Shown one piece after another: positions 6,749-26,700 of a stretch of DNA of 64,000 nucleotides. Where the stretch lies: NCBI GenBank assembly GCA_964617645.1, contig CAZTYE010000013.1:3956-67955 (forward strand), written 5' to 3'. Source of the DNA: an uncultured Ignavibacteria bacterium (GTDB lineage Bacteria; Zixibacteria; MSB-5A5; CAIYYT01). The notes beneath the pieces were generated by a model. That model saw nothing but the letters and a program-made list of their open reading frames with translations. It was not told the origin of the DNA and did not search any database. Numbering within the stretch: the first letter of the stretch is position 1; each line of letters opens with the position of its first letter. The translations under genes were made by a program, and so were the position numbers.

Positions 6749-9073
6749 ATGCTTGATTTGGAACGCATCTGCAAATTGGTGCGAGTGGTTGCGGCGCTTC
6801 TGATCGTTACCGTGTTGTCGTTTATGGGCGCGGATCTGGCGTTTCCGCTGCCGAAAGATCGACTCTATCCGCCGTCATCGCAGCAAATACTCGACAAGGA
6901 CGGGCGGATCCTGCGCGCCTTTCTGGCGCCCGACCAAATGTGGCGGCTGCGGGTGACGAGCGAGCAGACTTCATCACAGCTCAAGCTGGCAGTGTTGGCC
7001 TACGAGGATCGGCATTTCTACGTTCATCCGGGAATCAACCCGGCAGCGCTGCTGCGCGCCGCGTCGGCGAACATTCGCGCCGGACGAATCATCCAAGGCG
7101 GCTCGACAATCACCATGCAGGTGGCACGGCTGATCGAACCAAAAGAGCGCACGGTGGCGAGCAAGCTGATCGAAATGTTCCGGGCGCTGCAGCTTGAGCT
7201 GCACTTGACCAAAGACGAAATCCTCACCTGCTACTTCAATCTGGCGCCTTACGGCGGCAATATCGTCGGTATCGGCGCCGCGGCGCGTTCGTACTTTCAG
7301 AAGGCGCCGGATGCGCTCAGCCTCGGCGAAGCCGCGCTCCTTGCGGCGATACCGAACTCGCCCAACCGCTATCGACCGGATGTGAATCCGGAGGCGGCGG
7401 CGCAAGCGCGCGCCAAGATTCTGCGGATCATGCGTGACCGCGGAGCCATTACCGAGCAACAACGGGAAGAGGCGCAGCAGGAAACGATTCCGCGACGCCG
7501 CTTCGATCTGCCCTTTAGCGCGCCGCATTTCGCAGAGCTAATTCGCGAAGCCTACCCGGACCAGGAGATAGCGGGCACGACGCTGGATTCGCGGGTTCAG
7601 GAACTGGCCGAGCACGCGCTCGACCGCCAACTGGCGCAATTATCGCCGCTCGGAATTCATAGCGGCGCGGTAGTGGTGGTCGACAACCGATCCGGCACGC
7701 TTTTGGCCTTGGTGGGGTCGCAGGAATACTTCGACTCACTGCACTCCGGGCAAGTCAACGGCGCAACAGCGCCGCGTTCGCCGGGCTCGGCGCTCAAGCC
7801 GTTCGTATACGCGCTGGCGCTCGATCGGGGAGTAATATCGTCGCGAACCTTGATCTACGATGTACCCGTCGAATTCGCCGGCTACAAACCGGTGAACTAC
7901 GACGAAACCTTCAACGGCGCCGTGGCCGCCGAAGACGCGCTGATCCGCTCGCTGAACGTGCCGGCAATCAACCTCGCTGCGCAAACCGGCGGGGAGAAGA
8001 TTTTCGAAGAATTGAAGCGCTGCGGCCTGACAACGCTCAATCGCCCCTGGTCGCAATACGGCTTGCCGCTGGTGTTGGGCGGATGCGAAGTCAAGCTGCT
8101 CGAATTGACGAACCTCTACGCCGCGCTGGCGAACAGCGGACGATATCGCAGATTGCGTTTCCTAAAAAGCGACTCGGCAACCGGAGAACATGAACTCGTG
8201 GATACCGCTGCGGCATTCATCGTGAGTGAGATTCTGAGCCGCGTGCGGCGTCCGGAGCTGCCGTCGGCCTGGGAAGCCGCCACAAATGTTCCGAAGGTGG
8301 CGTGGAAGACGGGAACTTCATTGGGCAAGCGCGATGCCTGGTCAATCGGCTACAATCGTGATTATACGATCGGCGTCTGGATCGGCAATTTCAACGGGCG
8401 CGGCCACCCGCAACTGATCGGAGCCGAAGCGGCGGCGCCGGTTCTGTTTGATTTGTTCGAAACACTGGCCACCGGCGCCAGCGCCGGCTGGTTCGAACAG
8501 CCGCCGAATGTCGCGTGTCGACAGGTCTGCGCGTTATCGGGCATGCTTGCAACTGAATTTTGCACCGTCGTCGAGGACGAACCGGCGATTGTCGGGGTTG
8601 CGCCGAATCAACCCTGCTCGATGCACGAGGCCATCATCGTCGACCAAATTACGGGTCAGCGTTTGTGCAAACACTGTCGCGCCGGACATGCGACCCGGGA
8701 GCGAATCGCGGTGCGCTGGCCGACGGCGATTGCCACTTGGATGCAGCGCAACGGACGCGTGATCGACGCGATCCCGGCGCACAATCCGCAGTGCGGCGTG
8801 TTAGCCTCGGGAGACGGGCCGGTGATCGTATCGCCGATCGACGAATCGGATTTTCAACTGCGTCCGGAAGTGGCGCGGCGGTATCAGCGAATCCGGCTCG
8901 ATGCCTCGGTGGCAAACGAGACGCGGACGATTTACTGGTTTCTCAATCAAAAACTGATTTACTCGGGAGCGCCGACGCAGCAGGTATTTTTCGATCCAAC
9001 GCCGGGGAAACACGTGATCGTCTGCATGGACGATCGGGGACGTTCTTCGGAAGTCGAAGTATCGGTGCGGTAG
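6749..9073 (+). CDS. pbpC: Penicillin-binding protein 1C
   Basis: Transglycosylase motifs EDRHF and GGSTITMQVARL; transpeptidase motifs GSALKP, SLN and KTGTS; C-terminal BiPBP_C-like region; canonical pairing with alpha-2-macroglobulin. Confidence 0.93.
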   Translation: MLDLERICKLVRVVAALLIVTVLSFMGADLAFPLPKDRLYPPSSQQILDKDGRILRAFLAPDQMWRLRVTSEQTSSQLKLAVLAYEDRHFYVHPGINPAALLRAASANIRAGRIIQGGSTITMQVARLIEPKERTVASKLIEMFRALQLELHLTKDEILTCYFNLAPYGGNIVGIGAAARSYFQKAPDALSLGEAALLAAIPNSPNRYRPDVNPEAAAQARAKILRIMRDRGAITEQQREEAQQETIPRRRFDLPFSAPHFAELIREAYPDQEIAGTTLDSRVQELAEHALDRQLAQLSPLGIHSGAVVVVDNRSGTLLALVGSQEYFDSLHSGQVNGATAPRSPGSALKPFVYALALDRGVISSRTLIYDVPVEFAGYKPVNYDETFNGAVAAEDALIRSLNVPAINLAAQTGGEKIFEELKRCGLTTLNRPWSQYGLPLVLGGCEVKLLELTNLYAALANSGRYRRLRFLKSDSATGEHELVDTAAAFIVSEILSRVRRPELPSAWEAATNVPKVAWKTGTSLGKRDAWSIGYNRDYTIGVWIGNFNGRGHPQLIGAEAAAPVLFDLFETLATGASAGWFEQPPNVACRQVCALSGMLATEFCTVVEDEPAIVGVAPNQPCSMHEAIIVDQITGQRLCKHCRAGHATRERIAVRWPTAIATWMQRNGRVIDAIPAHNPQCGVLASGDGPVIVSPIDESDFQLRPEVARRYQRIRLDASVANETRTIYWFLNQKLIYSGAPTQQVFFDPTPGKHVIVCMDDRGRSSEVEVSVR

Positions 9074-9091
9074 CCGGGCGGCGTTGTTCGG

Positions 9092-9805
9092 TCAAGCGTT
9101 GGAGTCAAGCTCGCCGCGCGGCGTAAATTTGTAGCCGGCGCCGCGCATCGTGTGGATGTAGCGCGGGTTGGATTGATCCGGTTCAAAGATCTTTCGCAGC
9201 CGCAGAATGAAATTATCGATCGTGCGCGATGACGGGAAAACGTGGTATCCCCAGACGGCGTCGAGCAGCATGTCGCGTGTGACAACTTCGTTGGCGTGTT
9301 CGACGAGAAACTTCATCGTCATGCACTCTTTCTGGGAAAGCTCGACTTCCCCGCCGGTCCCTTTTGCGCGGTAAGTTTTGAAGTCGACCCAGTTGGCGTC
9401 GAAGGCAAAGCGCGATTTGTCAATCGCGATGGTCCCATACCAAACCTGACGGCGAAAGATCGCCGCAACGCGGAGGAGCAATTCCTGCAAGTTGAACGGT
9501 TTGGTAAGGTAGTCGTCGCCGCCGGAGAGAAACCCCTCAATGCGATCCGATTGCCGGTCACGCGCCGTCAAAAAGAGCACCGGTACCCGGCCGCCGGCAT
9601 CGCGGATTTCTTTGCAAACCGTGAGACCATCTTTGCCGGGAATCATGATATCGAGAATCAGCAGATCGAACTGCCCTTTGTGATATGTTTCCAGCGCCAC
9701 AATGCCGTCGCCCGCGACCGCGACCTCGTAGCCTTCGGCTTCAAGGTTGATTTGCAGTCCTTCGGCAATGTGCTCTTCGTCTTCGACGACCAAAATTCGC
9801 TTCAT
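9092..9805 (-). CDS. OmpR/PhoB-family response regulator
   Basis: ILVVEDE...LLILDIMIPGKDG receiver and winged-helix RTIDNFILRLRK...IHTMRGAGYKF. Confidence 0.95.
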   Translation of the reverse strand: MKRILVVEDEEHIAEGLQINLEAEGYEVAVAGDGIVALETYHKGQFDLLILDIMIPGKDGLTVCKEIRDAGGRVPVLFLTARDRQSDRIEGFLSGGDDYLTKPFNLQELLLRVAAIFRRQVWYGTIAIDKSRFAFDANWVDFKTYRAKGTGGEVELSQKECMTMKFLVEHANEVVTRDMLLDAVWGYHVFPSSRTIDNFILRLRKIFEPDQSNPRYIHTMRGAGYKFTPRGELDSNA

Positions 9806-11169
9806 CGGCGCCTCACTAACGGCAGTTTGATAATAAACGTCGTGCCTTTGTCAAGCCCTTCCGAGCGAGCTTCGACTGCGCCTCCGTGTTCCGTGACAAT
9901 TTGCCGGACGAGAAACAGCCCGATGCCGGTGCCTTTCACCGAGCGCGTGCTCTCCTCGCCGGTGCGATAAAAGCGGTCGAAGACTTTCTTGATCTCGTAG
10001 CGTTCGATGCCGATGCCCTGATCGGCGAAGGCGACTTCCACCGCGCGACCGATTCGGCGGGCGGTGATGGTCAGATGACGGCGATGCTCGGGCGAGTATT
10101 TGATGGCATTGTCGACGAGCGCCGTGACGACGCGCCGCAACGCGTGGTAGTCGGTGCGCACCGGCAACTCGGGACCGATCTCGGCGGAGATTTGCATTTG
10201 ATAGCGGTCAAGATGCGGTTGCAGGTCTTCGATATATTCGCGCAGATCGGTCGCCAGATTGGTTTCGACGAGATTGGCATGGTGGCCGCGCGTCCCGATG
10301 CGACCGGCCTCCAGAACATTGTCGACCAGGCCTTCCAGCCGCGCGCAATCATCGAGCATCCGCGGGATGAACCCTTTCACTTTCTCCTGATCGAATTTCC
10401 CGGACGCCATCGTTTCGAGATAAAGTTTGATCGAAGCGAGCGGAATTTTCAGTTCATGCGTAACGGCATGGATGAAGTTCTCCTGTTGCATCTTAAGCTC
10501 TTCCGATTGGCGCAATGTGCGGTAGATCATGAACGCGCCGAAGAGCGTCAACAGCACGAAGAACGAGCCTTCCATCGTAAACATGAAGACACGCCGGCGA
10601 CCGCGCTCCTCGACATCGGCGAGCACCTGCGGCTGGACGGAGAACATCTCCGGCGCGAACCAAGGCGACTCGTAGCGTCCGCGTCGCGCCGCCGCGAATT
10701 GCAGGTCGGCGTTGACGGTTGAGGTGAGTTGTGCCGGATAGGCGGCGTCGAGGAAGACGAGCGCACGATAGCTGGAGCGAACGTCGAGGTAGAATGTCGA
10801 GTCGACCGCGCCGGAAGTGATCAATAAACCGCCCTCAGGATCAAATAGCTGATAGCCAATGACAGCGGGGTCTTCGCGCAGCAGTTCAAAGGCGGCCTCG
10901 AGATGGCGGATGTTGTCGACCGACACGAACGATGCGGCTTCGCGCTCGAGACGGGCATATGAGCGATTAAGAATGGCGGCCGCGAGTTCGGCAGACGCCT
11001 GCGCCTGCCGTTCGTGAAACGCGAGTTGCTCCCTCGAGATCGTGACCTGAAAGTAGATCCACCAGACGATCTGCGCAACGGCGACAACGGCGATGGCGAC
11101 GAAGAGCGCCAGCGCGAGACCGGTGGGTCGGGCCAATTTGCGTTTGATACGATCGATAGCGAACCTCAA
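9802..11169 (-). CDS. Membrane sensor histidine kinase (probable TTG start at 11169)
   Basis: Two TM segments; H-box VTHELKIPL; N-box LVDNAIKYS; G-boxes DQGIGI and GTGIGL. The ORF-track extension to 11280 runs through the REP-like repeat and is likely spurious. Confidence 0.92.
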   Translation of the reverse strand: MRFAIDRIKRKLARPTGLALALFVAIAVVAVAQIVWWIYFQVTISREQLAFHERQAQASAELAAAILNRSYARLEREAASFVSVDNIRHLEAAFELLREDPAVIGYQLFDPEGGLLITSGAVDSTFYLDVRSSYRALVFLDAAYPAQLTSTVNADLQFAAARRGRYESPWFAPEMFSVQPQVLADVEERGRRRVFMFTMEGSFFVLLTLFGAFMIYRTLRQSEELKMQQENFIHAVTHELKIPLASIKLYLETMASGKFDQEKVKGFIPRMLDDCARLEGLVDNVLEAGRIGTRGHHANLVETNLATDLREYIEDLQPHLDRYQMQISAEIGPELPVRTDYHALRRVVTALVDNAIKYSPEHRRHLTITARRIGRAVEVAFADQGIGIERYEIKKVFDRFYRTGEESTRSVKGTGIGLFLVRQIVTEHGGAVEARSEGLDKGTTFIIKLPLVRRR

Positions 11170-11182
11170 TCTTGGACGAATG

Positions 11183-11341
11183 TTGGGTTGGGCGCACTGC
11201 CGTGCGCCTCTACGCGACGTGGCCATGCTTCGGGCGCAAAGTATTGCGCCCCTACCGGCGCAACTTTGGGTTGGGCGCACTGCCGTGCGCCATTACGCAG
11301 CGCAGTCACGCCTCGGGCGCAAAGTATTGCGCCCCGACCGG
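11183..11341. repeat. Two tandem copies (period 83 bp) of a composite REP/BIME-like element, four hairpins in total
   Basis: Copies at 11183-11258 and 11266-11341. Each contains GGCGCACTGCCGTGCGCC and GGGCGCAAAGTATTGCGCCC palindromes. The minus strand reads GTAG/GTCG/GTAA-N-GGCGCA..., the GTAG-type REP signature. Confidence 0.8.
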
Positions 11342-11388: not shown

Positions 11389-12267
11389 TTAGAAACGAAA
11401 GTTGAACTGCAGAAAGAGCGGCGTTTGGCGGTTTGAGTCTGAGGTGACAAAGTCATCGCCGAGCGAGTACATCAGTTCAGCGATCAACCAGCCAACGAGA
11501 GCGCCGGCGGCGACATCGGAAAGATAATGCTGGTGCGCATGGATTCGCGACCACGCGACAAACGACGCCCACGAAAACAGCGCCGTTGGCGGCGCCCAAT
11601 TCCAGTTGCGGAAGTCGCGGCAGTTCAAACGATCGCGCATGACTTGGCGCAACCGCAGATTGAGGTAGGCGGTCGCAAAAAACGCGCTGGAGGCATGGCC
11701 CGATATGAACGATTTGCGGGCATCATCATTGTTGAAGCCTTCCTCGTTTTGAACTTCCGGATGGAAATAGAGCATGGGCCGGGGTCGAGCGAATGCCCAC
11801 TTGAACAAGCCGGTAACGCCTTTGGTGGCGATCAGGCCGCTGCTATATAATAGTATATCCTGCGCGGCGTCTTTTCCGGAACGTTGGGCCGGCCAGCGGA
11901 AATCCGCACCGACCAGAGCGACGCCGCAGAGCGCCGGCGTAATCGCGGATCCGAAAGAGCCATCGATGAAATTCGTCTTGCCCGCGTAGTAGCGACCGCC
12001 GAGCAGTTTCAGCGCCGAACGGTCGAAAAGCACGGGGCCGTTGATCAGCGCTTTCCGCTGGGGCGAGATCGACGGCGTCATTTCGTAGAGGGCGAGCGGA
12101 GCCATTGATGCCGCAAAAACGGCGACAGCTTCGCCGCCGGAAAGATAGTCGCGTTGCGTTGCCGCTCTTCCCGCCGCGGAACTGTCAGCCGCAAAAACGC
12201 TCAGCAGCAGAAGACAAATCAAGAAGACATGCTTGCCCAGAGAGGGGTGACGGCGCCCGCAAATCAA
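11389..12267 (-). CDS. PAP2-superfamily phosphatase with signal-like N-terminus
   Basis: K..FARPRP, SFISGHAS and SRIHAHQHYLSDV..G motifs. The TTG start overlaps the upstream TGA (TTGA). Confidence 0.88.
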   Translation of the reverse strand: MICGRRHPSLGKHVFLICLLLLSVFAADSSAAGRAATQRDYLSGGEAVAVFAASMAPLALYEMTPSISPQRKALINGPVLFDRSALKLLGGRYYAGKTNFIDGSFGSAITPALCGVALVGADFRWPAQRSGKDAAQDILLYSSGLIATKGVTGLFKWAFARPRPMLYFHPEVQNEEGFNNDDARKSFISGHASSAFFATAYLNLRLRQVMRDRLNCRDFRNWNWAPPTALFSWASFVAWSRIHAHQHYLSDVAAGALVGWLIAELMYSLGDDFVTSDSNRQTPLFLQFNFRF

Positions 12268-13964
12268 TGTTCTATCCCGACGATTTCGAACTCGTTACGG
12301 TCCGCATGGTACCAAAGCCAGACGCGCGCCGATTTGCTCCAGCCTCCTTCGGAATGGCGACTCGAAATCTTAAACTCGAGCGGCTTCGGTGCCGCCGTTT
12401 GCGCGCCGATTGTGAAACGTGATTTGATGTTAGCGAGCGCCGAAGCTGCTAAGATCACGCTCGCGCTTGCCGCATCTCCATCGGCGATTGATTTGCCGTC
12501 GTGGCGCAGTGACCAGCGATATTTGTCGGCTCGCGCCGGAGTCCAGCCGTGATCCGCAGCCAAGTCGACGAAAACGATACGAATGCCCTTGGCGTCGGTC
12601 ACGATCTCGAAATCTTCGAGCGGACTCACCTTGGAGAACCAATAGCGGCCAATCTTCTCGCGGCGCGCGATTAGAGTCTGCAACAGATAATCGGCGGCGG
12701 CGGGATCGGAGTATTCGCCGGTTTTGACCAGCGCCGCCAGACGATCATCCGACCACTCCATGACGATCTTCGCGCCCCAGTAGCCGTCACGATCGGTGAG
12801 GTTTTCGAATGCGGAATTCGGGACGATGGGATCGAATTTGTTCGGCGCGAAAATCTCCGACTCGAAGTAGCCGATGGATGCATGCTGAGCCGGTTTGGCG
12901 TCTTCCCAGCCCCATTTTTTGAGTCCGAATGTCAGCCACGAGACGACGACATCGCGCAGGTCAAAGATATTGGCGTAGCCTTGTCTTGGCCCTTTGGGGC
13001 GGTCGCCATTGGCGCCGAAGGTCGAGCCGAAATCGATGAGATAGTGCTTGAGGTAGTTTCGACCGCCATCGTTAACGTATAGATCGAGCGTGTTTTGATC
13101 TTTGGTGTCGTAGTGGTTTACGAATGAAGCGATGACGTAAAGACCCCGAAGTTCGCGTCGATGCTCGTGCGGGCACCAGTCGTTCGGGTCATCTTTGCGG
13201 CGACCGTCGTAAGAGAACGGTCCAACTACCTTGCCGGCGAGGACTTTGGACGCCAATGAACGAATACGGCCGTCCGGTTGATGCGCGACACGAGCAAGAA
13301 TGTCGTCGAGGTCTTGGCGGGTGAACTCGCGCTTGACGCCTTCGCGGTCGGTAAACATCACGCCGGTCTGAATCTGCAGATTCTCCGGCCGCCAATGCAC
13401 AATGGTTTCTTCGGGGACGTTGTATCCGCAGGCATAGAAAAAGCGCGCGCCCATGGCGGCGGCGCCGGTTGCCAGCTCCGGCGCAGACGGCGGGTCGAAT
13501 TTGATTATATACTGCTCGCCGCGGGAATCCTTAATCCAGAAGCCCGGCGTTGCGCCTTGAACCTTGGGACGAAACACGAGCCACGGCTGTGAGGTGTCCG
13601 GGCCGCTGCCGGAGCCGGCGCCGCGCGTGATTTCCGCCGCTGTCATCGGCGATGTGCCGAGTCGATTGGTGAACCACGAAGAGTTGGCGACACCGTCGAA
13701 GCGGGTGATGTTGTAAGATTCTTTGGGCCGACCGACGAGCTTGCGGAAGCTGCGGTCGAGATCAGTGAGTTCTTCCCCCTGACGCCAGAACGTGTTGTCG
13801 ATCGACTGCCAGGCAAGAACCGGATCGACCGCCGCCGGCTGCGCGATGGTGGCGGTGTCGTGTTCGTGAACGCGGTCAGGGCCGGGGCGATAGACGACAT
13901 GATGCCGTGCGCAGCCGATCAGTCCGATTCCGACGGCAATGGTCAAAATCCGCAGAGCGATCAC
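12264..13964 (-). CDS. Lipoprotein with predicted PI3/PI4-kinase/HipA-like fold (probable GTG start at 13964)
   Basis: Lipobox LIG-C; GATPGFWIKDSRGEQYIIKF, PELATGA..GYNVPEETIV, NHYDTKDQN and YLIDFGSTFG line up with the ATP-loop/Lys, catalytic-loop and DFG-like elements of atypical kinases. GTGA overlap with the Omp85 stop. Confidence 0.65.
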   Translation of the reverse strand: MIALRILTIAVGIGLIGCARHHVVYRPGPDRVHEHDTATIAQPAAVDPVLAWQSIDNTFWRQGEELTDLDRSFRKLVGRPKESYNITRFDGVANSSWFTNRLGTSPMTAAEITRGAGSGSGPDTSQPWLVFRPKVQGATPGFWIKDSRGEQYIIKFDPPSAPELATGAAAMGARFFYACGYNVPEETIVHWRPENLQIQTGVMFTDREGVKREFTRQDLDDILARVAHQPDGRIRSLASKVLAGKVVGPFSYDGRRKDDPNDWCPHEHRRELRGLYVIASFVNHYDTKDQNTLDLYVNDGGRNYLKHYLIDFGSTFGANGDRPKGPRQGYANIFDLRDVVVSWLTFGLKKWGWEDAKPAQHASIGYFESEIFAPNKFDPIVPNSAFENLTDRDGYWGAKIVMEWSDDRLAALVKTGEYSDPAAADYLLQTLIARREKIGRYWFSKVSPLEDFEIVTDAKGIRIVFVDLAADHGWTPARADKYRWSLRHDGKSIADGDAASASVILAASALANIKSRFTIGAQTAAPKPLEFKISSRHSEGGWSKSARVWLWYHADRNEFEIVGIEH

Positions 13965-15280
13965 CAGTCGCCGCCCATCTCGAAGTAGACACGCCAACCT
14001 TCATCGGAACGCGCGACTTGCACGCTGAGCGCGACGCCGCTTTCATTCCAGAGCCGCAGGCCGGTCCCGTATCCTTCGTGCCAATTACGGAGAGTGAACT
14101 CGTCGCCGATGGCGGCAAAAACGCGGCCGGCTTCGGCAAAGATGAAGGCATCAATGACGTCCCAAATTGGATAACGGTACTCGAGGACCGCCTGAACGCG
14201 ATCGTAGTCGACATATCTGCTGCTGACGAAGCCGCGCAGGTCGTCGCGGCCACCGAGGCGACTTTTGAGATAAAAGGGGATTGTCGCGAGCTCTTTGTCG
14301 GCATCCACCGATTCGGCGAGCAGTTTCAGCGCCAACACGCGCTTATGATAGAGATTGAGATACTGTGTTAGCTCCAGCGACGCGCGCGTGAACCGGACAT
14401 CTTCGTCTTTCCCGATTCCGTCGGCGACGATCAACTCGACCAACTCGCGACCGCCGGCGGTTGGCTGTCCGCGCTCATTGCGCCAGTCGTGGTCGAAGCT
14501 CAGGCCGCCGGAAAGAACGCGGCTGCGACGGAGATCGGCAGGACGCAGGTCGAATTTCTCCAAGATGTCGTCGAGATCCCCGGTTAAGTCCGGCGTCTTG
14601 CCGCCGTAGATGTTCGTCGCGCGATACGCGGCGATAACGCCAACGGTGATGTTCTGAGCCAGCAGCCAGCGGTTCATGGCTTTGACCTCAAACCACTCCG
14701 TCGTGTACGCGACTTTGTCCGATTCGTGAGTGTCGTTGCCTAATCCGTAGAAATTTTCGCGCGGACGACGGCGATAAGTGATCTCCAAGTCCAGACCGCT
14801 GCGTGACGAAAACAGTTGCGGCGCTCGATAAGACAGGCCGTGCCGGTGATAGCTATGGGTCGAATAGGTGCTGATGATGCGCAAATGTCCCTGCGGCGAG
14901 AACGCCTGCGGCTTCACGAACTCGAAGCCGTAACGCAAACCGGGATTTGTGCCGTAGGAGACGGCGGGAATAATTCCCGACGGTGACTTGAACGAGAAAA
15001 CACGCCGCGCCACGCGATATACGGCCGGATTGCGGTAGATCCCGTGCACGACCGCCCAGTTGAGGCCTTTGCCGACATAGAGCGGGACGCGAAGAACGGT
15101 CTCCGGAGCATCGAGCAGGTAATCGCCAAAGTTCTTGCGGGGCGCTTCGGGCCGTTGGGTCAACGCCGTATCGATGTCGGCTACTGCTGCAGGCTGCGCC
15201 GCCGCGACATTAGTTGCGAGGATGAAGCCGGCCAAGATAAATGTGGCCAAATTCAGTCCGAGATAGATAGTCGACTTCAT
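13961..15280 (-). CDS. Omp85 (BamA/TamA-family) outer-membrane barrel, apparently without POTRA domains (probable ATG at 15280)
   Basis: Signal peptide MKSTIYLGLNLATFILAGFILATNVAAA; LGGRDDLRGF loop-6 motif; FAEAGRVF; GYGTGLR; terminal Trp; only ~440 aa. Confidence 0.85.
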   Translation of the reverse strand: MKSTIYLGLNLATFILAGFILATNVAAAQPAAVADIDTALTQRPEAPRKNFGDYLLDAPETVLRVPLYVGKGLNWAVVHGIYRNPAVYRVARRVFSFKSPSGIIPAVSYGTNPGLRYGFEFVKPQAFSPQGHLRIISTYSTHSYHRHGLSYRAPQLFSSRSGLDLEITYRRRPRENFYGLGNDTHESDKVAYTTEWFEVKAMNRWLLAQNITVGVIAAYRATNIYGGKTPDLTGDLDDILEKFDLRPADLRRSRVLSGGLSFDHDWRNERGQPTAGGRELVELIVADGIGKDEDVRFTRASLELTQYLNLYHKRVLALKLLAESVDADKELATIPFYLKSRLGGRDDLRGFVSSRYVDYDRVQAVLEYRYPIWDVIDAFIFAEAGRVFAAIGDEFTLRNWHEGYGTGLRLWNESGVALSVQVARSDEGWRVYFEMGGDW

Positions 15281-15392
15281 GGTGTGGGGGAATATATTCG
15301 CGGCGTCGACCGGCGTCAAGTATCGGCTCGGAATAAATGGCTGTTGCCGCCGGCTGGTCATGCGGGTATTATTTCCGTAATCGAGTTGAGGT

Positions 15393-18185
15393 ATGGCAGA
15401 GATCAGATTATTACTTGTCGAGCCCGATCCGGAGAGGCGCCGCCGAACGGCACAGCAGTTGCGCCGGCGCGAGTTCCAAGTTACGATGGCGCGATCCGGC
15501 GCGCAGGCGCTCACGCTCAGCCGCGCTTCGGTCTTCGACGCCGTCGTCGCGAATTTGAGCGCCGTCGCCGCTGAAGCGGATCAGGTAATCGAAGGACTTC
15601 GAGCAGCGCTGCCCCAGTCACCGATCTTGCTGCTGACTCCGCGAAAAGCCGAGTCTCGGGCGCTGGCGGCGATTGCGCGCGGCGCCTATCAGTTTCTCTT
15701 TTTGCCGGTCAGCATTGACAACTTGGAATTGACGATCCGGCTGGCGGTCGAACATCAGCGGTTGCGCCGGCGGCTGCAAACGCACTCGCGCGAGCTGGAA
15801 CGGAAGACGGATTCGCTGGAACGCCGCACGGCGGAGCTCTCGCAAGCGCTGAGAGAGTTGGAGGCAAGCCGGGATGAATTGCAGGCGGTGTTCGACAGTT
15901 CGCATAGCCTGCTGCTTTTTGTCGACAACGCCGATTGCATCGTAAGCTGTAATCCGCGCGTACGCGAATACTTCGGTTTGTCGCCGGAAGATGTCGCGCA
16001 CCGGCCGTTTACCGAATTCATCGGCAAGGTCGGCCGCCTGCTCCAAAATCCGGAAAATGCCGAGCGGGCGCTCAGCGACCCGGCATTCTACAAGGCCGAC
16101 CAGATGTCGAATGACGACGCGCACGCGATGTTCCGGCGCGCCTGGGTGGTTGCCGAATCGCAGCGCGTGATCGCGCCCTGGGTCGTCGATGTCACGGCGC
16201 GCGACGGGCACAAGCTGGGGCGCTTTTGGGGATTTTCGGACATCACCGGCGTCAAACAAGCGGACGATCATATCCATGCGGTGATTGAGGCGGCGCCGAT
16301 TCCGCTGATCATTACACGCTTTCCAGAGGGGACGATTCTGTTCGCGAACGAGCGGATGTCGTCGATTGTCGGATTGAAGCCGAAAGATCTCGTCGGGCGA
16401 CGCGCGCCGGAGTTCTACGCCGACCCCAGCGAGCGCGAGAATCTTCTCAAGGAGTTGACGGCGACCGGCCGCGCGCAACAGGAAATGCGCGTGCGCCATG
16501 TTGACGGCAGCGAAATCTGGATGATCTTCATGGTCGCATTGGCGGAGATCAATCGCCAGAAGGTGATCATTGGCGGGCTCTACGACATTTCCGAGCGCAA
16601 GTCGATTGAAGAGCAATTGCGGCGGGAGCGCAACTTCGTGGCGGCGGTGATTAATACGGTCGACGCCCTGATCATCGTCCTCGACACCGAGGGCCGGATC
16701 GTGCAGTTCAACCGCGCCTGCGAGAGCATCAGCGGCTACGAAAGCTTCGAAACGCGGGGGCGTTTCGTTTGGGATTTCCTGTTGCCGCCCGAGGAAGTCG
16801 CGGCGGTGCAGGCGGCATTCGCCGATGTCCGGGCACAAACCCTGAGCGGCACATTTACGAATCACTGGCTGACACGCGACGGACGCAAGCGACTGATCGA
16901 ATGGTCGAACACCGTCCTGAGCGACGCCGACGGCAAAATCGAATATGTGATCGGCACCGGCATCGACGTGACGGAAGAACGAGCGGCGCTCGAGGCACTG
17001 CGAGTTTCGGAAGAACGATTCCGCACGATCGTCGAAAATGCCAACGACATCATCTATCTGCTCGACGACGACGGCGTCTTCCGCTACGTTTCGCCAAATT
17101 GGACGCAGTGGCTCGGACACGAAGTCGCCGAGGTCGTCGGGCAACCTTTCTCGGATTTCGTTCATCCCGATGACCGGCAGCTCTGTCAAGAGTGCTTTAT
17201 TCAGATACTGACGTCGCAGCGTCGTCTAAGCGGGATCGAACACCGCGTTCGACATAAGAACGGCAGCTATCGCTGGCACAACACGAGCGCGTCGCCGTTG
17301 CCGAGCGCAAGCGGTCGATCATCGCAGTATGTCGGGATTTCTCATGACGTCACCGAGCGCAAGAAGACGCAGGACGAACTGGCGGCGGCTTACAAAGACC
17401 TAAAAAGCACGCAGAGCCAATTGGTGCAGTCGGAGAAGATGGCCTCTTTGGGCATGCTGGTGGCGGGGATTGCCCACGAGATCAACACACCGATCGGCGC
17501 GGTGGCGAGCATGCACGATACGCTGGTACGCGCCGTCGACAAATTGACCCGCTCGCTGGACTGCATCGGCGAACAATCCGGCGCCGACACCGAGAGTATC
17601 GCCGAAACGCTGCGACTCATCGAAGACGCCAACCGCGTGATCGTCTCCGGCACCGAGCGCGTGGTGAATATCGTCCGGCGTTTGCGCAGTTTCGCGCGTT
17701 TGGATGAAGCGGAAATCAAGCGCATCGATATCCATGAGGGACTCGAAGACACGTTGACGCTCATCCACCATGAGATCAAACACAACATCAAGCTGGAACG
17801 GCGGTTCGGCGCGGTGCCGCGTCTGGCGTGCTACCCCGGACGATTGAATCAAGTTTTTCTCAATTTGCTGATCAATGCGAAACAGGCGATCGTGGACAAG
17901 GGCACGATCACGATCACGACCGGCACACAGGGCATATTTGCTTTCATCGAATTCGCGGATTCCGGCGTCGGCATCCCGCCGGAAAATCTACAGCGCATCT
18001 TCGATCCGGGATTCACGACGAAAGGCGTCGGGGTCGGCACCGGCTTAGGGCTGTCGATCTGCTATCAAATCGTGCGCGATCATCGCGGAACGATCGAAGT
18101 GGCAAGCGAGGTTGGCGTCGGGACGACGTTTCGCGTGTTGCTGCCGCTGAACCTTGACGAAATCCTCGGAGTGTCGGCGGGTTAG
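15393..18185 (+). CDS. Cytoplasmic hybrid histidine kinase: receiver, coiled coil, four PAS domains, NtrB-like HisKA/HATPase
   Basis: N-terminal LLLVEPD receiver-like domain; four PAS-like repeats; SEKMASLGMLVAGIAHEINTP; NLLINAKQA; FTTKGVGVGTGLGL. Confidence 0.92.
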   Translation: MAEIRLLLVEPDPERRRRTAQQLRRREFQVTMARSGAQALTLSRASVFDAVVANLSAVAAEADQVIEGLRAALPQSPILLLTPRKAESRALAAIARGAYQFLFLPVSIDNLELTIRLAVEHQRLRRRLQTHSRELERKTDSLERRTAELSQALRELEASRDELQAVFDSSHSLLLFVDNADCIVSCNPRVREYFGLSPEDVAHRPFTEFIGKVGRLLQNPENAERALSDPAFYKADQMSNDDAHAMFRRAWVVAESQRVIAPWVVDVTARDGHKLGRFWGFSDITGVKQADDHIHAVIEAAPIPLIITRFPEGTILFANERMSSIVGLKPKDLVGRRAPEFYADPSERENLLKELTATGRAQQEMRVRHVDGSEIWMIFMVALAEINRQKVIIGGLYDISERKSIEEQLRRERNFVAAVINTVDALIIVLDTEGRIVQFNRACESISGYESFETRGRFVWDFLLPPEEVAAVQAAFADVRAQTLSGTFTNHWLTRDGRKRLIEWSNTVLSDADGKIEYVIGTGIDVTEERAALEALRVSEERFRTIVENANDIIYLLDDDGVFRYVSPNWTQWLGHEVAEVVGQPFSDFVHPDDRQLCQECFIQILTSQRRLSGIEHRVRHKNGSYRWHNTSASPLPSASGRSSQYVGISHDVTERKKTQDELAAAYKDLKSTQSQLVQSEKMASLGMLVAGIAHEINTPIGAVASMHDTLVRAVDKLTRSLDCIGEQSGADTESIAETLRLIEDANRVIVSGTERVVNIVRRLRSFARLDEAEIKRIDIHEGLEDTLTLIHHEIKHNIKLERRFGAVPRLACYPGRLNQVFLNLLINAKQAIVDKGTITITTGTQGIFAFIEFADSGVGIPPENLQRIFDPGFTTKGVGVGTGLGLSICYQIVRDHRGTIEVASEVGVGTTFRVLLPLNLDEILGVSAG

Positions 18186-18210
18186 TCGGTTAGCCCGGCG
18201 CAACGCAAGC

Positions 18211-19734
18211 ATGAAGCGATTCCTGCTAAAAACGTTCGATGTCCGGCCCGAAGAGCGTCGCCTGACATCGCTGTTGGCGGTCAACTACGCGTTACTGCTG
18301 GCAACCTTTTACCTGCTTAAACCGGCGCGCGACAGTTTATTCCTCGTCAAACTGACTCCCGACCAACTGCCGCTGGTGTTCATTCTTTCGGCGTTTGCGA
18401 CGCTGCCGGTAGCCGCGCTGTATGCGCGCGCCGCGAGAAGGTTTGGGCCGGTGGCGTTGACGAACGGCACGACGATCTTCCTGATCGTCAACCTGGCGGC
18501 GCTTCGCTATCTGGTGACGGCCGGCGGCGAGTGGGTGTACTACGTGTTTTACGCCTGGGTCGGGATTTACGGGATTCTGGTTACGGCGCAATTCTGGCTT
18601 CTGGCAAACGCGCTCTATGACGCGACGCAGGCTAAGCGTTTGTTTTCGCTGCTCGGCGCGGCCGGAATCGTCGGCGCCTTTCTCGGCGGTGAGTTGACCG
18701 CGTTCTTAGTCGCGCGCCTGCATCTGGGGACGGAGAACTTGCTGTTGGCTACTATGGGACTCCTGACTTTGAGTGTCCTTGCCGTTGGCATGATCGCCCG
18801 CAGCCGCCGACACGAGTTGGCCCGAAGACAAAGCGCGCGCCAAACTCGAGAACCGACCGCATTGCCAATTATTGATGCGGCGCGCACCGTCGCACGATCG
18901 CGCTTGCTGGTGGCCATTGTCGCTTTGATCGCCGTTGCGGTGATGGTATCGACACTCATCGATTATGTCTTTAAAGATATCTGCTATCGGGAATTGGCGG
19001 GCGACAAGCAGAGCCTGACCGCATTTTTTGGCACATTCTATGGCCGCGTCAGCCTGATCGCGCTGGCGATTCAATTGCTGGCGACTTACCCGCTGCTCAG
19101 GCGGTTCGGCGTCGGCGGTGTGTTAGTTTTCATGCCGCTGGCGATTATCGGGGGTGACGCCGCGATCATGCTTACTCCGACGCTCATCGGAGCGATGCTG
19201 CTCAAAGGATCGGAAGGATCGCTGGAATACTCGCTCGATCGCGTCGGCCGTGAACTGCTTTTTCTGCCGGTGCCGATACAGGTCAAGGCGCGGGTCAAGA
19301 TTCTTGTCGATATCTTCGCCGACCGATTCTTCCGCGGCGTGGCGGGAATCATTCTGTTGGTGCTGCTGGCAATCGCGGCGGCGACAACCGAGAACATCGC
19401 GCTGATAATCGGCGGATTGGCGCTAATCTGGGTGACGATCGGATTTTGGGTTCGCCGCGAATACATTGACTCGTTTCGCCACGCCATGGAGCGGCGCGAA
19501 ATCGATCTTGAAGACCAACGATTGCGGATCGATGATGATGCCACGCTACAAACTCTCGTCGTTTCCCTTGCGAGCCTGAACGAACGCCAAGTCAGTTATG
19601 CGCTTGAGTTGCTCAAATCCGCGCGCAAGCCGGCGCTCGTCGCGGAAGTCGGTCCGCTGCTGAAACATCGCTCGCCGGAAGTTCGGCGCAGGGCGCTCGA
19701 ACTGCTTCAGGAGTATCATGAACTGGTTGGCTGA
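18211..19734 (+). CDS. Npt1/Npt2 (ATP/ADP translocase-like) MFS transporter with the start of a HEAT-repeat region; 5' part of a split gene
   Basis: YLLKPARDSLF, QFWLLANALYD..QAKRLF, EYSLDRVGRELLFLP and K..VDIFADR motifs; about 12 TM segments; HEAT-like tail LLKHRSPEVRRRALELL. Confidence 0.8.
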   Translation: MKRFLLKTFDVRPEERRLTSLLAVNYALLLATFYLLKPARDSLFLVKLTPDQLPLVFILSAFATLPVAALYARAARRFGPVALTNGTTIFLIVNLAALRYLVTAGGEWVYYVFYAWVGIYGILVTAQFWLLANALYDATQAKRLFSLLGAAGIVGAFLGGELTAFLVARLHLGTENLLLATMGLLTLSVLAVGMIARSRRHELARRQSARQTREPTALPIIDAARTVARSRLLVAIVALIAVAVMVSTLIDYVFKDICYRELAGDKQSLTAFFGTFYGRVSLIALAIQLLATYPLLRRFGVGGVLVFMPLAIIGGDAAIMLTPTLIGAMLLKGSEGSLEYSLDRVGRELLFLPVPIQVKARVKILVDIFADRFFRGVAGIILLVLLAIAAATTENIALIIGGLALIWVTIGFWVRREYIDSFRHAMERREIDLEDQRLRIDDDATLQTLVVSLASLNERQVSYALELLKSARKPALVAEVGPLLKHRSPEVRRRALELLQEYHELVG

Positions 19735-20974
19735 CATCAATGCGCTGCTCGACGACCCCGACCTCGGCGTGCGGCGCGAAGCGCTCCACCTTCTGTATCT
19801 CCGCGCGGGCAGCGAACGGATGCGGTTTGTGGAGGAGCAACTGAATCACTTTGACCCTCGACGGCAGACCGCCATGCTGGCGTGTATGGCCCGGCATCGG
19901 CTACCGGAATCCGAGAAGCTGCTCGACGAAGAGCGCCTCGAGACTTTCCTGGTGCGGCAGGATGCTGACGCCGAGGCCGGTCGCATCGAGGTGGCGCGAG
20001 TCATGGGCGTGCTCAGCGCCGAGCACTATCGTATTTTCCTCGCGCAACTGCTGGCGGATTCGTCGGTCAACGTCGTGCACGCCGCGATCGCGGCGGTTGG
20101 ACATCGTCGCGATGCCGATTTTATTCCCACGCTTTACGACTTTCTCGCCAGTCCCCGGTCACGGAATGCCGCCAAGGAGGCGCTCGCCGAGTTCGGTACG
20201 CCGATTCTGCCGTTTTTGCGGGACGGACTGTTGTCGGCGCAAACGGCGCCGCGTCTGCGCGAACAAATTCCCAGCGTGATTTATCGCATCGTCGCGCCGG
20301 AGTCCGTGGCGCTACTCGTTGACTGCGCCGCCCAATTACCGCCGCCGCTACGCTGGCGCACAATCCGGGCCTTGAACAAGCTGCTGTCGACATCGAGTCG
20401 GCTGAAATTTCCCGCAACACGAATCGACAAGTTGATAGTTGCCGAATGCGAAGAGCTGTTTCGATACATCGAGATGTTGGCGATCCTTGCCGAAGGCGCC
20501 GACACGGAGGCGAATCGGCTCCTGATTCGGGCAATCGCCGAACGCAAGCGGCTCGGACGCGAGATGGCTTTCCGCCTGCTCGGGCTGCGTTTTGACCGGG
20601 TAGCAATCTACAACGCCTATCTCCGCATCAGCGACCCGCGTCACGACGCGCGCGCCGGAGCGCTGGAGTATCTGAGCAACGTCTTGCCCGCTCAGTATCG
20701 GTCGCAGCTTCTTGCCGTGATTGAGGAACATGCGCCGCAGGAGGCCTTGCGCCGCGCATCATTGTACTACGACCGCCGGATCCGGGACCGGGAGGCGCTG
20801 GTCGAGACGCTGCTCACGGGCCGTGATGACTGGCTCAAGGCCTGCGCGGTCAATACGCTCACGGCAACAGAGACGAGGGCGACAGTCGACCGGGTACGCA
20901 CATTGTGCCAGGATCGCGACGCCGTCGTACGGGAAACGGCGCTTGCCGTCACCGCGGAAAATGGCTATCAATAG
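19718..20974 (+). CDS. HEAT-repeat protein, probably the 3' continuation of the Npt-HEAT gene
   Basis: LLDDPDLGVRREAL, LLADSSVNVVHAAI and D.DAVVRETA HEAT repeats; overlaps the upstream ORF by 17 nt in the +1 frame. Confidence 0.75.
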   Translation: MNWLADINALLDDPDLGVRREALHLLYLRAGSERMRFVEEQLNHFDPRRQTAMLACMARHRLPESEKLLDEERLETFLVRQDADAEAGRIEVARVMGVLSAEHYRIFLAQLLADSSVNVVHAAIAAVGHRRDADFIPTLYDFLASPRSRNAAKEALAEFGTPILPFLRDGLLSAQTAPRLREQIPSVIYRIVAPESVALLVDCAAQLPPPLRWRTIRALNKLLSTSSRLKFPATRIDKLIVAECEELFRYIEMLAILAEGADTEANRLLIRAIAERKRLGREMAFRLLGLRFDRVAIYNAYLRISDPRHDARAGALEYLSNVLPAQYRSQLLAVIEEHAPQEALRRASLYYDRRIRDREALVETLLTGRDDWLKACAVNTLTATETRATVDRVRTLCQDRDAVVRETALAVTAENGYQ

Positions 20975-21007
20975 TTGCGCCCGGCGGGTACGCGGAGCAG
21001 AACGCAA

Positions 21008-21451
21008 GTGCTGACGACGATCGAAAAAGTGATACGACTTCAGGATGTCGACATCTTCGCCAACGTCGCCAGCGGCGATTTGGCTTACGTCGCGGCAATC
21101 GCGGAGGAAGTCAATATCGCCGCCGGAGCGCAGATTTTCGCGGTGGGTGACGCCGCCGATGCGATGTATCTGGTGCTTGAGGGCCGAGTGCGGTTGCATC
21201 GTGACGGCGAAGAGATCGCGCTGGCCGATGCCGGTGTCGCGTTCGGCACCTGGTCTTTGTTCGACGAAGAGCAGCGCGTCGTCGGCGCGACAGCGGTAAT
21301 CGAAAGCCGGCTGTTGTGCATCACGCGCGAAGCGTTCGTCGATATTCTCGCCGATCACGGGGAACTGGCGCAAGCAATATTACGTACACTGTCACGACGG
21401 CTGCGGAACATCGTTGAGCGCGTTCACTGGGATCGTCCCGCCGGAAATTAA
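21008..21451 (+). CDS. Stand-alone cyclic-nucleotide-binding (Crp-like cNMP) domain protein
   Basis: GTG start MLTTIEKVI.LQ.VDIF; GDAADAMYLVLEGRV; FGTWSLFDEEQR..GA.A. Confidence 0.85.
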   Translation: MLTTIEKVIRLQDVDIFANVASGDLAYVAAIAEEVNIAAGAQIFAVGDAADAMYLVLEGRVRLHRDGEEIALADAGVAFGTWSLFDEEQRVVGATAVIESRLLCITREAFVDILADHGELAQAILRTLSRRLRNIVERVHWDRPAGN

Positions 21452-21479
21452 CTCTTGCGACACTCGCGGCAAGGAATCG

Positions 21480-22703: not shown

Positions 22704-22721
22704 GAAGGAGAATCGCTGATC

Positions 22722-26451: not shown

Positions 26452-26700
26452 CGGCGGGCGCCGAACAGAACCAGAGGAACACAGAGATGTTGATGACAGC
26501 AGAAACAAGATTCCATCGACTGGTTGAACGTTTATCATACATCGTAGCACGTTTTCGTCTTCCTGGATTCCGAACTTGCTTCGCTGAGCAGCTCGGCAAG
26601 AACATGGTGCCTCGGGCATCACACGTACTTAACCCATCTACTTTCCTACAGGCAAACAACCAAACCCAAAACATGCACCGATCCTTTAAGGAGGTAACCA

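Follow-up and report, generated by a model that had tools for sequence, protein, structure and literature searches.

Barrel proteins of the Omp85 superfamily that lack POTRA domains have been grouped as the noNterm class (Heinz and Lithgow 2014, PMC4104836), to which no function has been assigned in any organism. In Leptospira, genes for POTRA-less paralogues are followed immediately by lipoprotein genes whose products are DUF1566 or Big-domain proteins, at least one of which has been suggested to be surface-exposed, and a role in lipoprotein translocation has been discussed (PMC11358297). Two-partner secretion likewise places an Omp85-superfamily barrel beside a dedicated exported partner, although TpsB carries two POTRA domains and TpsA carries a TPS domain. 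Among kinases of atypical fold, the Fam20 family (PDB 4kqb, 5wrr) works outside the cytosol in the secretory pathway and depends on ATP brought into that compartment by an exchanger, while CtkA of Helicobacter pylori (PDB 3akk), which belongs with HipT (PDB 7ab4) to the HipA-type kinases, is secreted. Finally, NTT-HEAT and NTT-HEAT-cNBD nucleotide-transporter fusions have been described in free-living bacteria, where a small gene for a cyclic-nucleotide-binding protein follows, but their function was reported as unknown (Major et al. 2017, PMC5381601).

Here we examined a window of 64,000 nucleotides from an uncultured bacterium of the Zixibacteria, in which a preliminary description had noted three overlapping genes and proposed a kinase/phosphatase pair acting outside the cytoplasm with its own Omp85 as transporter or platform. 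The observation proved correct. On the minus strand, a gene for a POTRA-less Omp85 barrel (13961-15280) ends with GGC GAC TGG TGA, the stop lying at 13961-13963, and is overlapped by a GTG at 13964-13962 (GTGA). This GTG opens the lipoprotein gene (12264-13964) with MIALRILTIAVGIGLIGC, a lipoprotein signal with a lipobox Cys18, and an independent gene caller gives the same length of 566 amino acids. The lipoprotein gene in turn ends with GAA CAT TGA at 12264-12266, and a TTG at 12267-12265 overlaps this stop (TTGA) and opens the gene for a membrane PAP2 phosphatase of 292 amino acids (11389-12267).

The barrel protein has 439 amino acids when read from the ATG at 15280, whereas the gene caller used an alternative ATG at 15361 to give 466 amino acids. 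Homologues of 416-432 amino acids favor the shorter form. Pfam model PF01103 matches at 3.3e-11 (43.7 bits against a cut-off of 24), and NF047779 (Omp85_fam) scores 4.8e-18 but remains below its cut-off. The AlphaFold model contains a 16-strand barrel at residues 102-437, and Foldseek finds the TamA and BamA barrels as its best structural matches (TamA, E 6e-16, TMt 0.73). The (V/L)RG(F/Y) motif characteristic of loop 6 is present as DDLRGF, with R349 and G350 invariant in 20 homologues. In agreement with the preliminary description, no POTRA domain was found: residues 27-100 are modelled only as a low-confidence helix between the signal peptide and the barrel, without a beta-alpha-alpha-beta-beta unit, and TIGR03303 (BamA) scores 26 bits against a cut-off of 297. 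The protein therefore fits the noNterm class, but its partner is kinase-like, unlike the Leptospira lipoproteins. Neither the paired POTRA domains of TpsB nor any Pfam domain in the partner, including the TPS domain of TpsA, was detected.

The lipoprotein matches no Pfam, NCBIfam or PDB sequence. Among 54 family members scanned against Pfam, none hit any kinase family, including Fam20, HipA, PI3/PI4-kinase, CotH, APH and Kdo/WaaP, even at E values up to 10, and a profile built from the family found nothing among PDB sequences. However, its AlphaFold model (pLDDT 88, pTM 0.89) indicates a bilobal kinase-like fold followed by a C-terminal FN3-like beta-sandwich (about residues 449-566). Foldseek matches are dominated by Fam20, CtkA, HipT/HipA, Rio2, alpha-kinase and PI4KII, with probability about 1, and also include IRE1. 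Fam20 gives the best matches (E 4e-5, probability 1.0), although global TM-scores are low (0.27-0.37) and the bacterial protein differs in being a lipoprotein with an extra N-terminal region, a family-specific Arg/Asp/His motif and the C-terminal domain. The best core superposition is with CtkA (TMt 0.50-0.54), with which it shares the order of Gly-loop, Lys, catalytic loop and Mg-binding Asp. The catalytic loop nevertheless reads D-x-[KR]-x-x-N, whereas that of HipA reads D-x-H-x-K-N, and there is no toxin-antitoxin context.

All of the kinase-like motifs noted in the preliminary description are present, namely GATPGFWIKD (137-146), IIKF (152-156, including Lys155), NHYDTKDQN (283-291) and IDFG (310-313), and they are conserved far beyond chance at positions that fit the predicted strands. 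In 84 family members from 80 genomic loci, down to 35% identity, G137 is kept in 84, K155 in 83, D286 in 83, N291 in 84 and D311 in 83. A family-specific invariant patch of Arg, Asp and His residues (R256, D259, D262, H266, R269, R270, R273 and H307) is also kept. By contrast, the glutamate that had been described as conserved, E163 at the alphaC position expected to pair with the beta3 Lys, is only moderately conserved, being kept in 57 of 84 members. Several atypical kinases lack this pair. Of 244 full-length relatives, 237 have an N-terminal hydrophobic signal, which is followed by a Cys in 184, and the lipobox Cys18 (LIGC) is invariant in 54 close homologues. The family comprises more than 2800 clusters at 50% identity.

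The PAP2 protein matches PF01569 at 6.3e-23, has several hydrophobic segments and carries all three catalytic motifs, KX6RP at 156-164, SGH at 189-191 and SRX5HX3D at 240-251. In these respects it resembles the membrane phosphatases PgpB, BcrC, LpxE/LpxF and LpxT. However, it matches no NCBIfam equivalog (the best is SepP at E 0.026), and no characterised PAP2 protein is paired with a kinase-like lipoprotein.

Examination of gene neighborhoods revealed that the conserved unit is not the trio. Across the 80 loci, which come from about nine phyla, an Omp85 gene lies directly upstream of the kinase-like gene on the same strand in 76. The pair is tandemly duplicated as a unit in three loci (L017, L034 and L048), where both copies keep the catalytic residues. 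PAP2 genes are adjacent to the pair in only 18 loci and in two different gene orders, downstream of the kinase-like gene in Zixibacteria and upstream of Omp85 in Nitrospirota. In 15 other loci a metallophosphoesterase takes this place, and elsewhere nothing does. The replaceable phosphoesterases carry signal peptides. Of the three conditions that had been set beforehand as able to overturn the earlier proposal, a non-kinase predicted fold and unconserved Lys/Asp residues were not observed, whereas conserved linkage holds for the Omp85-lipoprotein pair but not for all three genes.

The most informative partner, absent from the preliminary description, lies 3 kb away in the window itself, at 18154-21451 on the plus strand, and bears directly on how a kinase could get ATP outside the cytoplasm. 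The first gene (18154-19734; gene-caller start 18211, 507 amino acids) encodes a TLC/NTT-family nucleotide-transporter domain protein that matches PF03219 at 8.7e-14 (51.6 bits against a cut-off of 21). Its relatives are named Npt1/Npt2 nucleotide transporter or ATP/ADP translocase/HEAT. The second (19718-20974) encodes a HEAT-repeat protein (HEAT_2, 1.3e-14) corresponding to the C-terminal half of the usual ∼920-amino-acid NTT-HEAT fusion, and a profile built from the HEAT halves of fused relatives matches it at 3e-125. The fusion is split in two in this clade, as is also seen in loci L003 and L004 and in entries P0291-P0302. The third (20975-21451) encodes a small cyclic-nucleotide-binding protein (PF00027, 1.5e-15), found in the same position in 17 loci and in L081, L083, L085 and L086. 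This pairing with NTT-HEAT is the one described by Major et al. (PMC5381601), although the parts of that study that we read mention no link to an Omp85 or to a kinase-like lipoprotein.

Transporter genes of this type, with PF03219 scores of 27-76 bits in other loci, lie within 6 kb of the kinase-like gene in 55 of 80 loci, or in 37 of the 48 loci with full flanks, and are often immediately downstream on the same strand. They occur as a short form and as an NTT-HEAT form followed by the cyclic-nucleotide-binding protein. In one Zixibacteria genome (L083), independent gene calls and precomputed Pfam annotations show a single operon of Omp85, kinase-like protein, unknown protein, TLC-HEAT, cyclic-nucleotide-binding protein and PAP2. 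Searching from the transporter side, we found that the NTT-HEAT gene of the cultured bacterium Fodinibius roseus is followed by Omp85 and the kinase-like gene. However, two of the three NTT-HEAT loci sampled in this way have no Omp85 or kinase-like gene within 10 kb, and 25 of the 80 loci show no TLC gene within 6 kb of the kinase-like gene.

Our analyses establish a widely conserved module, predicted to act in the cell envelope, whose core is a POTRA-less Omp85 barrel and a translationally coupled lipoprotein of a previously undescribed kinase-like family with strictly conserved nucleotide-binding and catalytic residues, linked in most genomes to one or two TLC/NTT-family transporters and in about 40% of loci to a phosphoesterase with an export signal. 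What these parts do, including any phosphotransfer, ATP transport or docking, is inferred from sequence and predicted structure alone. The interpretation offered in the preliminary description is only partly supported, because the predicted kinase-like fold, the export signal and the linkage to Omp85 hold, while the trio does not. Consistent with the view expressed there, our literature searches found no characterised system of this composition.

We tentatively favor a mechanism in which the inner-membrane NTT runs in the direction that the gradients of a free-living cell favor, with cytoplasmic ATP going out and ADP, with phosphate, coming in. Characterised NTTs are ATP/ADP(+Pi) exchangers whose direction follows the gradients. 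The lipoprotein would be anchored in the outer membrane and docked to its own barrel, and would use this ATP to phosphorylate an as yet unidentified envelope substrate (lipid, glycan or protein) at or passing through the barrel. The PAP2 protein or metallophosphoesterase would remove the phosphate again or recycle it, and the HEAT, cyclic-nucleotide-binding and two-component genes would set the activity from the cytoplasm. Such a system would be the bacterial counterpart of Golgi Fam20 kinases fed by a lumenal ATP/ADP exchanger. However, the periplasm is generally held to lack ATP, which would also leak through porins, and all characterised NTTs work as importers. Moreover, the TLC proteins are distant from characterised exchangers (43-68 bits against the TIGR00769 cut-off of 387, with 43 bits for the window protein), and NTT relatives carry other cargo such as NAD and SAM, so that ATP is an assumption. 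The alphaC Glu of the lipoprotein is kept in only 57 of 84 members, and kinase-like folds also perform AMPylation, glutamylation or binding alone. The strongest form of this view, that some free-living diderm bacteria keep a dedicated ATP supply outside the cytoplasmic membrane for a catalytically active kinase docked to the barrel, is doubtful on present evidence but not excluded. If true, it would be the first ATP-dependent enzyme system of the periplasm or outer membrane, and would explain both the NTT genes of free-living bacteria and one class of orphan Omp85 proteins.

Other possibilities exist, each of which we consider less likely. Since all characterised NTTs import nucleotides, as in Chlamydia and Rickettsia (PMC5381601), the module could instead be a scavenging route for nucleotides or phosphate, wherein the barrel is the outer-membrane passage, the lipoprotein captures or processes external nucleotides and the phosphoesterase trims phosphates. 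Indeed, both phosphoesterase superfamilies include periplasmic nucleotidases and acid phosphatases, the metallophosphoesterases here weakly resemble cyclic-nucleotide phosphodiesterases, and every linked part is nucleotide-related, namely the NTT, the cyclic-nucleotide-binding protein and a secreted protein with weak RelA/SpoT similarity. However, Omp85 barrels are not known to act as solute channels, a binding protein would not need a strictly conserved catalytic Asp, Asn and DFG-Asp, and a kinase outside the cell makes no energetic sense for uptake. Somewhat less likely still, the barrel may translocate its lipoprotein to the cell surface to serve as an ecto-kinase that uses environmental ATP on external or neighboring-cell substrates, with the transporter linkage being regulatory or incidental. 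The Leptospira precedent (PMC11358297), the secreted CtkA and the co-duplication of the pair are compatible with this view, but the TLC linkage spans about nine phyla, varied gene orders and single operons and is hard to dismiss, the barrel has neither of the two POTRA domains of two-partner translocators, and the free-living habit of the host bacteria makes reliable external ATP doubtful.

It is also possible, though unlikely, that the kinase-like protein is an ATP-driven switch or an AMPylase-like nucleotide-transferring enzyme that takes the place of the missing POTRA domains and powers or gates transport or assembly by the barrel. The barrel lacks periplasmic domains but has a conserved N-terminal segment, the pairing is one-to-one and co-duplicated, a linked ATP supply would give the outer membrane an energy source, and a kinase with a paired phosphatase amounts to net ATP hydrolysis. 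Against this, the D-x-[KR]-x-x-N loop and DFG-type Asp are the classical phosphotransfer set, and no kinase-fold motor acting at an outer membrane is known. Least likely is the narrower proposal of the preliminary description, here taken as an obligate kinase/PAP2 pair cycling phosphate on a membrane lipid, for example a polyprenyl phosphate or lipid A, with Omp85 as the platform. The coupling and intact active site of PAP2, its adjacency to the pair in two independent gene orders and the action of membrane PAP2 enzymes on lipid phosphates at the outer face of the inner membrane agree with such a role. However, PAP2 is absent from 62 of 80 loci, and the soluble-type metallophosphoesterase with an export signal that occurs in 15 loci would not be expected to work on a membrane-embedded lipid.

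Downstream of PAP2 on the minus strand lie a histidine kinase gene (9802-11280, with a likely start near 11226; HisKA and HATPase_c) and an OmpR-type response regulator gene (9092-9805; Response_reg and Trans_reg_C) whose start overlaps the end of the kinase gene. In the closest loci (L001-L004 and L026) the histidine kinase gene is found in the same position and the response regulator gene is conserved. A receiver-PAS-histidine kinase hybrid, identified with Pfam, is encoded on the plus strand (15393-18185), divergent from the Omp85 gene, which it separates from the transporter gene, and the same arrangement occurs in L001-L004, L026 and L081.

Three consecutive ORFs are present on the minus strand. 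The first extends from an ATG at 15280 to a TGA at 13961-13963 (439 aa). A GTG at 13964 shares its last two bases with this stop codon (GTGA) and opens a 566-aa ORF that begins MIALRILTIAVGIGLIGC, a lipoprotein signal peptide with a lipobox cysteine; the public gene call for the same sequence is also 566 aa. This ORF ends in a TGA at 12264-12266, which overlaps a TTG at 12267 (TTGA) that opens a 292-aa ORF ending at 11389. Pfam assigns the first ORF to Omp85 (PF01103, 3e-11) and the third to PAP2 (PF01569, 6e-23). The sequence motifs that the preliminary description noted in the middle protein are all present, namely GATPGFWIKD (137-146), IIKF (152-156), NHYDTKDQN (283-291) and IDFG (310-313). 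The coupled gene trio reported there is thus confirmed.

Sequence comparisons failed to place the middle protein in any described family. No hit was obtained with Pfam, with NCBIfam, or with single-sequence and profile searches of PDB sequences, and a Pfam scan of 54 members at E values up to 10 returned no kinase or other family. The protein nevertheless belongs to a large group. More than 3900 proteins match in a collection clustered at 90% identity, and among the 120 best listed every source name is “hypothetical protein” and none has a Pfam domain. At 50% identity, 2808 clusters match at E ≤ 0.001.

An AlphaFold model built from 54 homologues is confident (pLDDT 88, pTM 0.89), and a Foldseek comparison of this model with the PDB returns almost only atypical kinases. 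These include Fam20 from C. elegans and human (E 4e-5), CtkA from H. pylori (TM 0.50-0.54 normalised to the target), HipT and HipA, Rio2, an alpha-kinase, IRE1 and PI4KII-alpha. The last ~110 residues match FN3/cytokine-receptor beta-sandwiches. Since none of the 54 members scanned matches a Pfam kinase family and a profile of the family hits no PDB sequence, the protein represents a new family of the kinase-like superfamily rather than a member of Fam20, HipA or PI4K.

The residues that define an active kinase are nearly invariant. Among 84 family members from 80 genomic loci, down to 35% identity, G137 is kept in 84, K155 in 83, D286 in 83, N291 in 84 and D311 in 83. Position 288 is Lys or Arg in 80 members, giving the pattern D-x-[KR]-x-x-N, and 129 representatives at 50% identity tell the same story. 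However, the glutamate that had been described as conserved (E163) is kept in only 57 of 84. The family also carries its own invariant charged patch between the N-lobe and the catalytic loop (R256, D259, D262, H266, R269, R270, R273 and H307), which we read, by inference only, as a site for an anionic substrate.

Of 244 full-length relatives, 184 have a hydrophobic N-terminal stretch followed by Cys and 53 more have a hydrophobic N-terminus, while the remaining 7 mostly look like truncated gene calls. The family is exported. We also looked for a conserved disulfide as a sign of an oxidising compartment, but C179 and C264 are Cys only in the Zixibacteria clade and are hydrophobic residues elsewhere, and this comparison is therefore uninformative.

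The AlphaFold model of the Omp85 protein (20 sequences, pLDDT 81) has 16 strands from residue 102 to 437, with only a low-confidence helix between the signal peptide and the barrel. Its best structural matches are the barrels of TamA and BamA (TMt 0.73), and the RGF motif is invariant. The preliminary description was therefore right to call this protein POTRA-less, and it falls in the “noNterm” class of Heinz and Lithgow, for which no function is known (PMC4104836). In Leptospira, noNterm Omp85 genes are likewise followed by lipoprotein genes (PMC11358297). The PAP2 protein has intact KX6RP, SGH and SRX5HX3D motifs and several hydrophobic segments.

A promoter and terminator scan found no minus-strand terminator in the spacer between the PAP2 and histidine kinase genes. 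A sigma-70-like site (TTGACG, 17-nt spacer, TATATT; 10/12 match) at 15291-15319 on the minus strand ends 10 nt before the Omp85 ATG at 15280, which would imply a very short or absent leader. However, the scan found 4 sites against 1.8 expected, and this evidence is weak and may reflect chance. A scan of the whole window with Rfam found no RNA family.

To determine which parts of this arrangement are conserved, we scanned one genome per species and found at least 589 loci, of which the best 80 were retained. These come from Zixibacteria-like MAGs (the closest relatives, 57-64% identity), Latescibacterota, Krumholzibacteria/Eisenbacteria, Acidobacteriota, Gemmatimonadota, Nitrospirota, Cytophagia-labelled MAGs, KSB1/Calditrichota and Planctomycetota. 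Neighbouring genes were identified with iterated HMMs on six-frame ORFs. An Omp85 of this type lies directly upstream on the same strand in 76 of the 80 loci, and one of the exceptions is cut at the contig end. In Latescibacterota and KSB1 genomes the barrel-kinase pair is duplicated as a unit, with the pair twice in tandem in L017, L034 and L048 and two kinase-like genes in L051, and all copies keep the catalytic residues. We considered whether one copy in such duplicates might be a pseudokinase, as in the Fam20A/Fam20C pair, but this was ruled out because both copies keep the K, D, N and D residues.

In contrast, PAP2 is found in only 18 of the 80 loci and was rejected as an obligatory third partner. 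It lies downstream of the kinase-like gene in Zixibacteria and upstream of the Omp85 gene in Nitrospirota. In the Nitrospirota loci (L035, L036, L038, L039 and L052) it is on the same strand in four of the five and on the opposite strand in L036, and in most of them a ~290-aa lipoprotein-like protein without a Pfam family follows the kinase-like gene. Fifteen loci carry a calcineurin-like metallophosphoesterase with a signal peptide (PF00149), and one locus (L015) has both enzymes, such that 32 of 80 loci have one or the other. The core is thus the barrel-kinase pair, and the phosphatase is a frequent but exchangeable accessory.

Clustering of all neighbouring ORFs gave one further large cluster, present in 51 loci, which Pfam identifies as the TLC ATP/ADP transporter family (PF03219). 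It occurs in two forms, a short form of ~445 aa and a ~920-aa form that is fused to HEAT repeats and followed by a small cyclic-nucleotide-binding protein. With dedicated HMMs, TLC or its HEAT half lies within 6 kb of the kinase-like gene in 55 of 80 loci, or in 37 of the 48 loci with full flanks. The transporter is present in every phylum group sampled, and in about 19 loci it is immediately downstream on the same strand.

The window itself carries this set on the plus strand, with TLC at 18154-19734, HEAT at 19718-20974 and the cNMP-binding gene at 20975-21451. The set is divergent from the Omp85 operon and separated from it by a receiver-PAS-histidine kinase gene, a layout shared by the closest loci. 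Although the NTT-HEAT protein is a single ~920-aa protein in most relatives, here it is split into a TLC gene and a HEAT gene that overlap by 17 nt in different frames. The same split (TLC part ~506 aa) is seen in the closest relatives (proteins P0291-P0302, loci L003 and L004), and therefore appears to be a real gene fission in this clade rather than a sequencing error.

Independent gene calls with precomputed Pfam assignments confirm the link. In one Zixibacteria genome (locus L083), six genes encoding Omp85, the kinase-like protein, a 427-aa unknown protein, TLC-HEAT, the cNMP-binding protein and PAP2 form a single co-directional string with gaps of 70 nt or less. In another (L081), genes for Omp85, the kinase-like protein, the unknown protein and PAP2 face a convergent TLC-HEAT/cNMP pair. 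The unknown protein, which has a signal peptide, 410-427 aa and no Pfam family, lies between the kinase-like gene and PAP2 or TLC in some Zixibacteria (L083:11675-12958, L081:11756-13027, L005:4158-5438, L006:7699-8970, L009:7714-8949 and L013:1340-2569). It gives only weak hints of a fold of the RelA/SpoT pyrophosphokinase type (Pfam E 0.008 in one of six members, and PDB YwaC at E 0.029 over the catalytic domain). If real, this would be a second ATP-using fold predicted outside the cytoplasm, although no homologue was found in the window.

We also began from the transporter side, where only one of three sampled NTT-HEAT loci carries the pair. A contig (L084:10001-16289) that encodes a protein identical to the NTT-HEAT of the cultured bacterium Fodinibius roseus has NTT-HEAT followed by an Omp85 (HMM E 2e-82) and a kinase-like gene (7e-180) on one strand, so that a cultured organism has the module. 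A patatin-Omp85 (PlpD-like) gene lies divergently upstream at 7304-9511. The two other NTT-HEAT-cNMP loci (L085:9093-19043 and L086:9102-19270) sit among two-component genes, with no barrel or kinase-like gene within 10 kb. These represent a second conserved context with the same gene order in two unrelated genomes: a HATPase protein, NTT-HEAT, the cNMP-binding protein, a receiver, an unknown protein of ~455 aa, an unknown protein of 146 aa, a HAMP-PAS kinase and a receiver-kinase. Not every NTT-HEAT, therefore, belongs to this module.

The interpretation in the preliminary description, an extracytoplasmic kinase/phosphatase pair with its own Omp85, is only partly supported by these data. The predicted fold, the export and the Omp85 linkage hold, but the trio is not the conserved unit, and the link to the transporter had been missed. 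Each part belongs to a recognised superfamily. The barrel is a noNterm Omp85, the phosphatase is a PAP2, the lipoprotein has a predicted kinase-like fold although its family is new, and the transporter is an NTT-HEAT-cNBD of the kind catalogued by Major et al. 2017, who reported its function in free-living bacteria as unknown (PMC5381601). Full-text literature searches found nothing that links an Omp85 with a kinase-like lipoprotein, nothing that describes a periplasmic or extracytoplasmic kinase system, and no later functional work on NTT-HEAT. As a system, we could find no described counterpart, and we regard its composition as new in kind, whereas its mechanism is a hypothesis.

What the analysis establishes is an exported protein with a predicted kinase fold and intact catalytic residues, a dedicated barrel, and frequent linkage to nucleotide-transporter homologues and exported phosphoesterases. 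That the protein catalyses phosphotransfer, and that the transporter provides its nucleotide, are inferences from sequence and predicted structure alone. Characterised NTTs exchange ATP for ADP plus phosphate, with the direction set by the gradients, which in a free-living cell would mean ATP out and ADP/Pi in. A kinase together with a phosphatase in the periplasm would regenerate exactly ADP and Pi. In this view the lipoprotein would sit on the inner face of the outer membrane, a placement that is itself assumed, docked to its barrel. It would phosphorylate something at or passing through the barrel, and PAP2 or the metallophosphoesterase would reverse this. The HEAT and cNMP-binding parts and the flanking two-component genes would regulate the system from the cytoplasm. 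The nearest working analogy is that of Golgi Fam20 kinases supplied by a lumenal ATP/ADP exchanger.

We hold this model, the most likely of those considered, only tentatively, as somewhat less likely than not. The TLC proteins are distant from characterised exchangers (43-68 bits against a curated cut-off of 387), and a quarter to a third of loci show no TLC nearby. Other possibilities exist, including nucleotide scavenging in which the NTT acts as an importer, surface display of an ecto-kinase by a two-partner-like mechanism, and a kinase-fold ATP switch that powers or gates the barrel. The narrower cycle of a lipid kinase and PAP2 also remains among the alternatives.

If the model is true, it would overturn a working assumption of envelope biology. 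The periplasm and outer membrane are assumed to have no ATP, so every known process there is powered indirectly, through TonB, through Lpt and Lol bridges, or by folding energy. A conserved module that joins an exported protein with a predicted, catalytically intact kinase fold, a dedicated outer-membrane barrel and ATP/ADP-translocase-type transporters points to direct nucleotide-dependent chemistry outside the cytoplasm. The module occurs in several large environmental phyla, namely Zixibacteria, Acidobacteriota, Gemmatimonadota, Nitrospirota, Latescibacterota and Balneolota. It would also give testable functions to two orphan families, the NTT-HEAT-cNBD transporters of free-living bacteria and the POTRA-less Omp85 proteins, and it adds a large family to the kinase-like superfamily. 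Its presence in cultured Fodinibius roseus makes experiments feasible.

Directly after the cNMP-binding gene in the window, at 21414-23222 on the plus strand, are genes for a receiver-PP2C (SpoIIE) phosphatase and a single-domain receiver, suggesting a partner-switching or phosphorelay layer next to the transporter. Further along the same strand, at 23509-30030, a TonB-dependent receptor with a carboxypeptidase-regulatory-like N-domain is followed by a 1109-aa protein whose only Pfam hit is a C-terminal dockerin type I domain.
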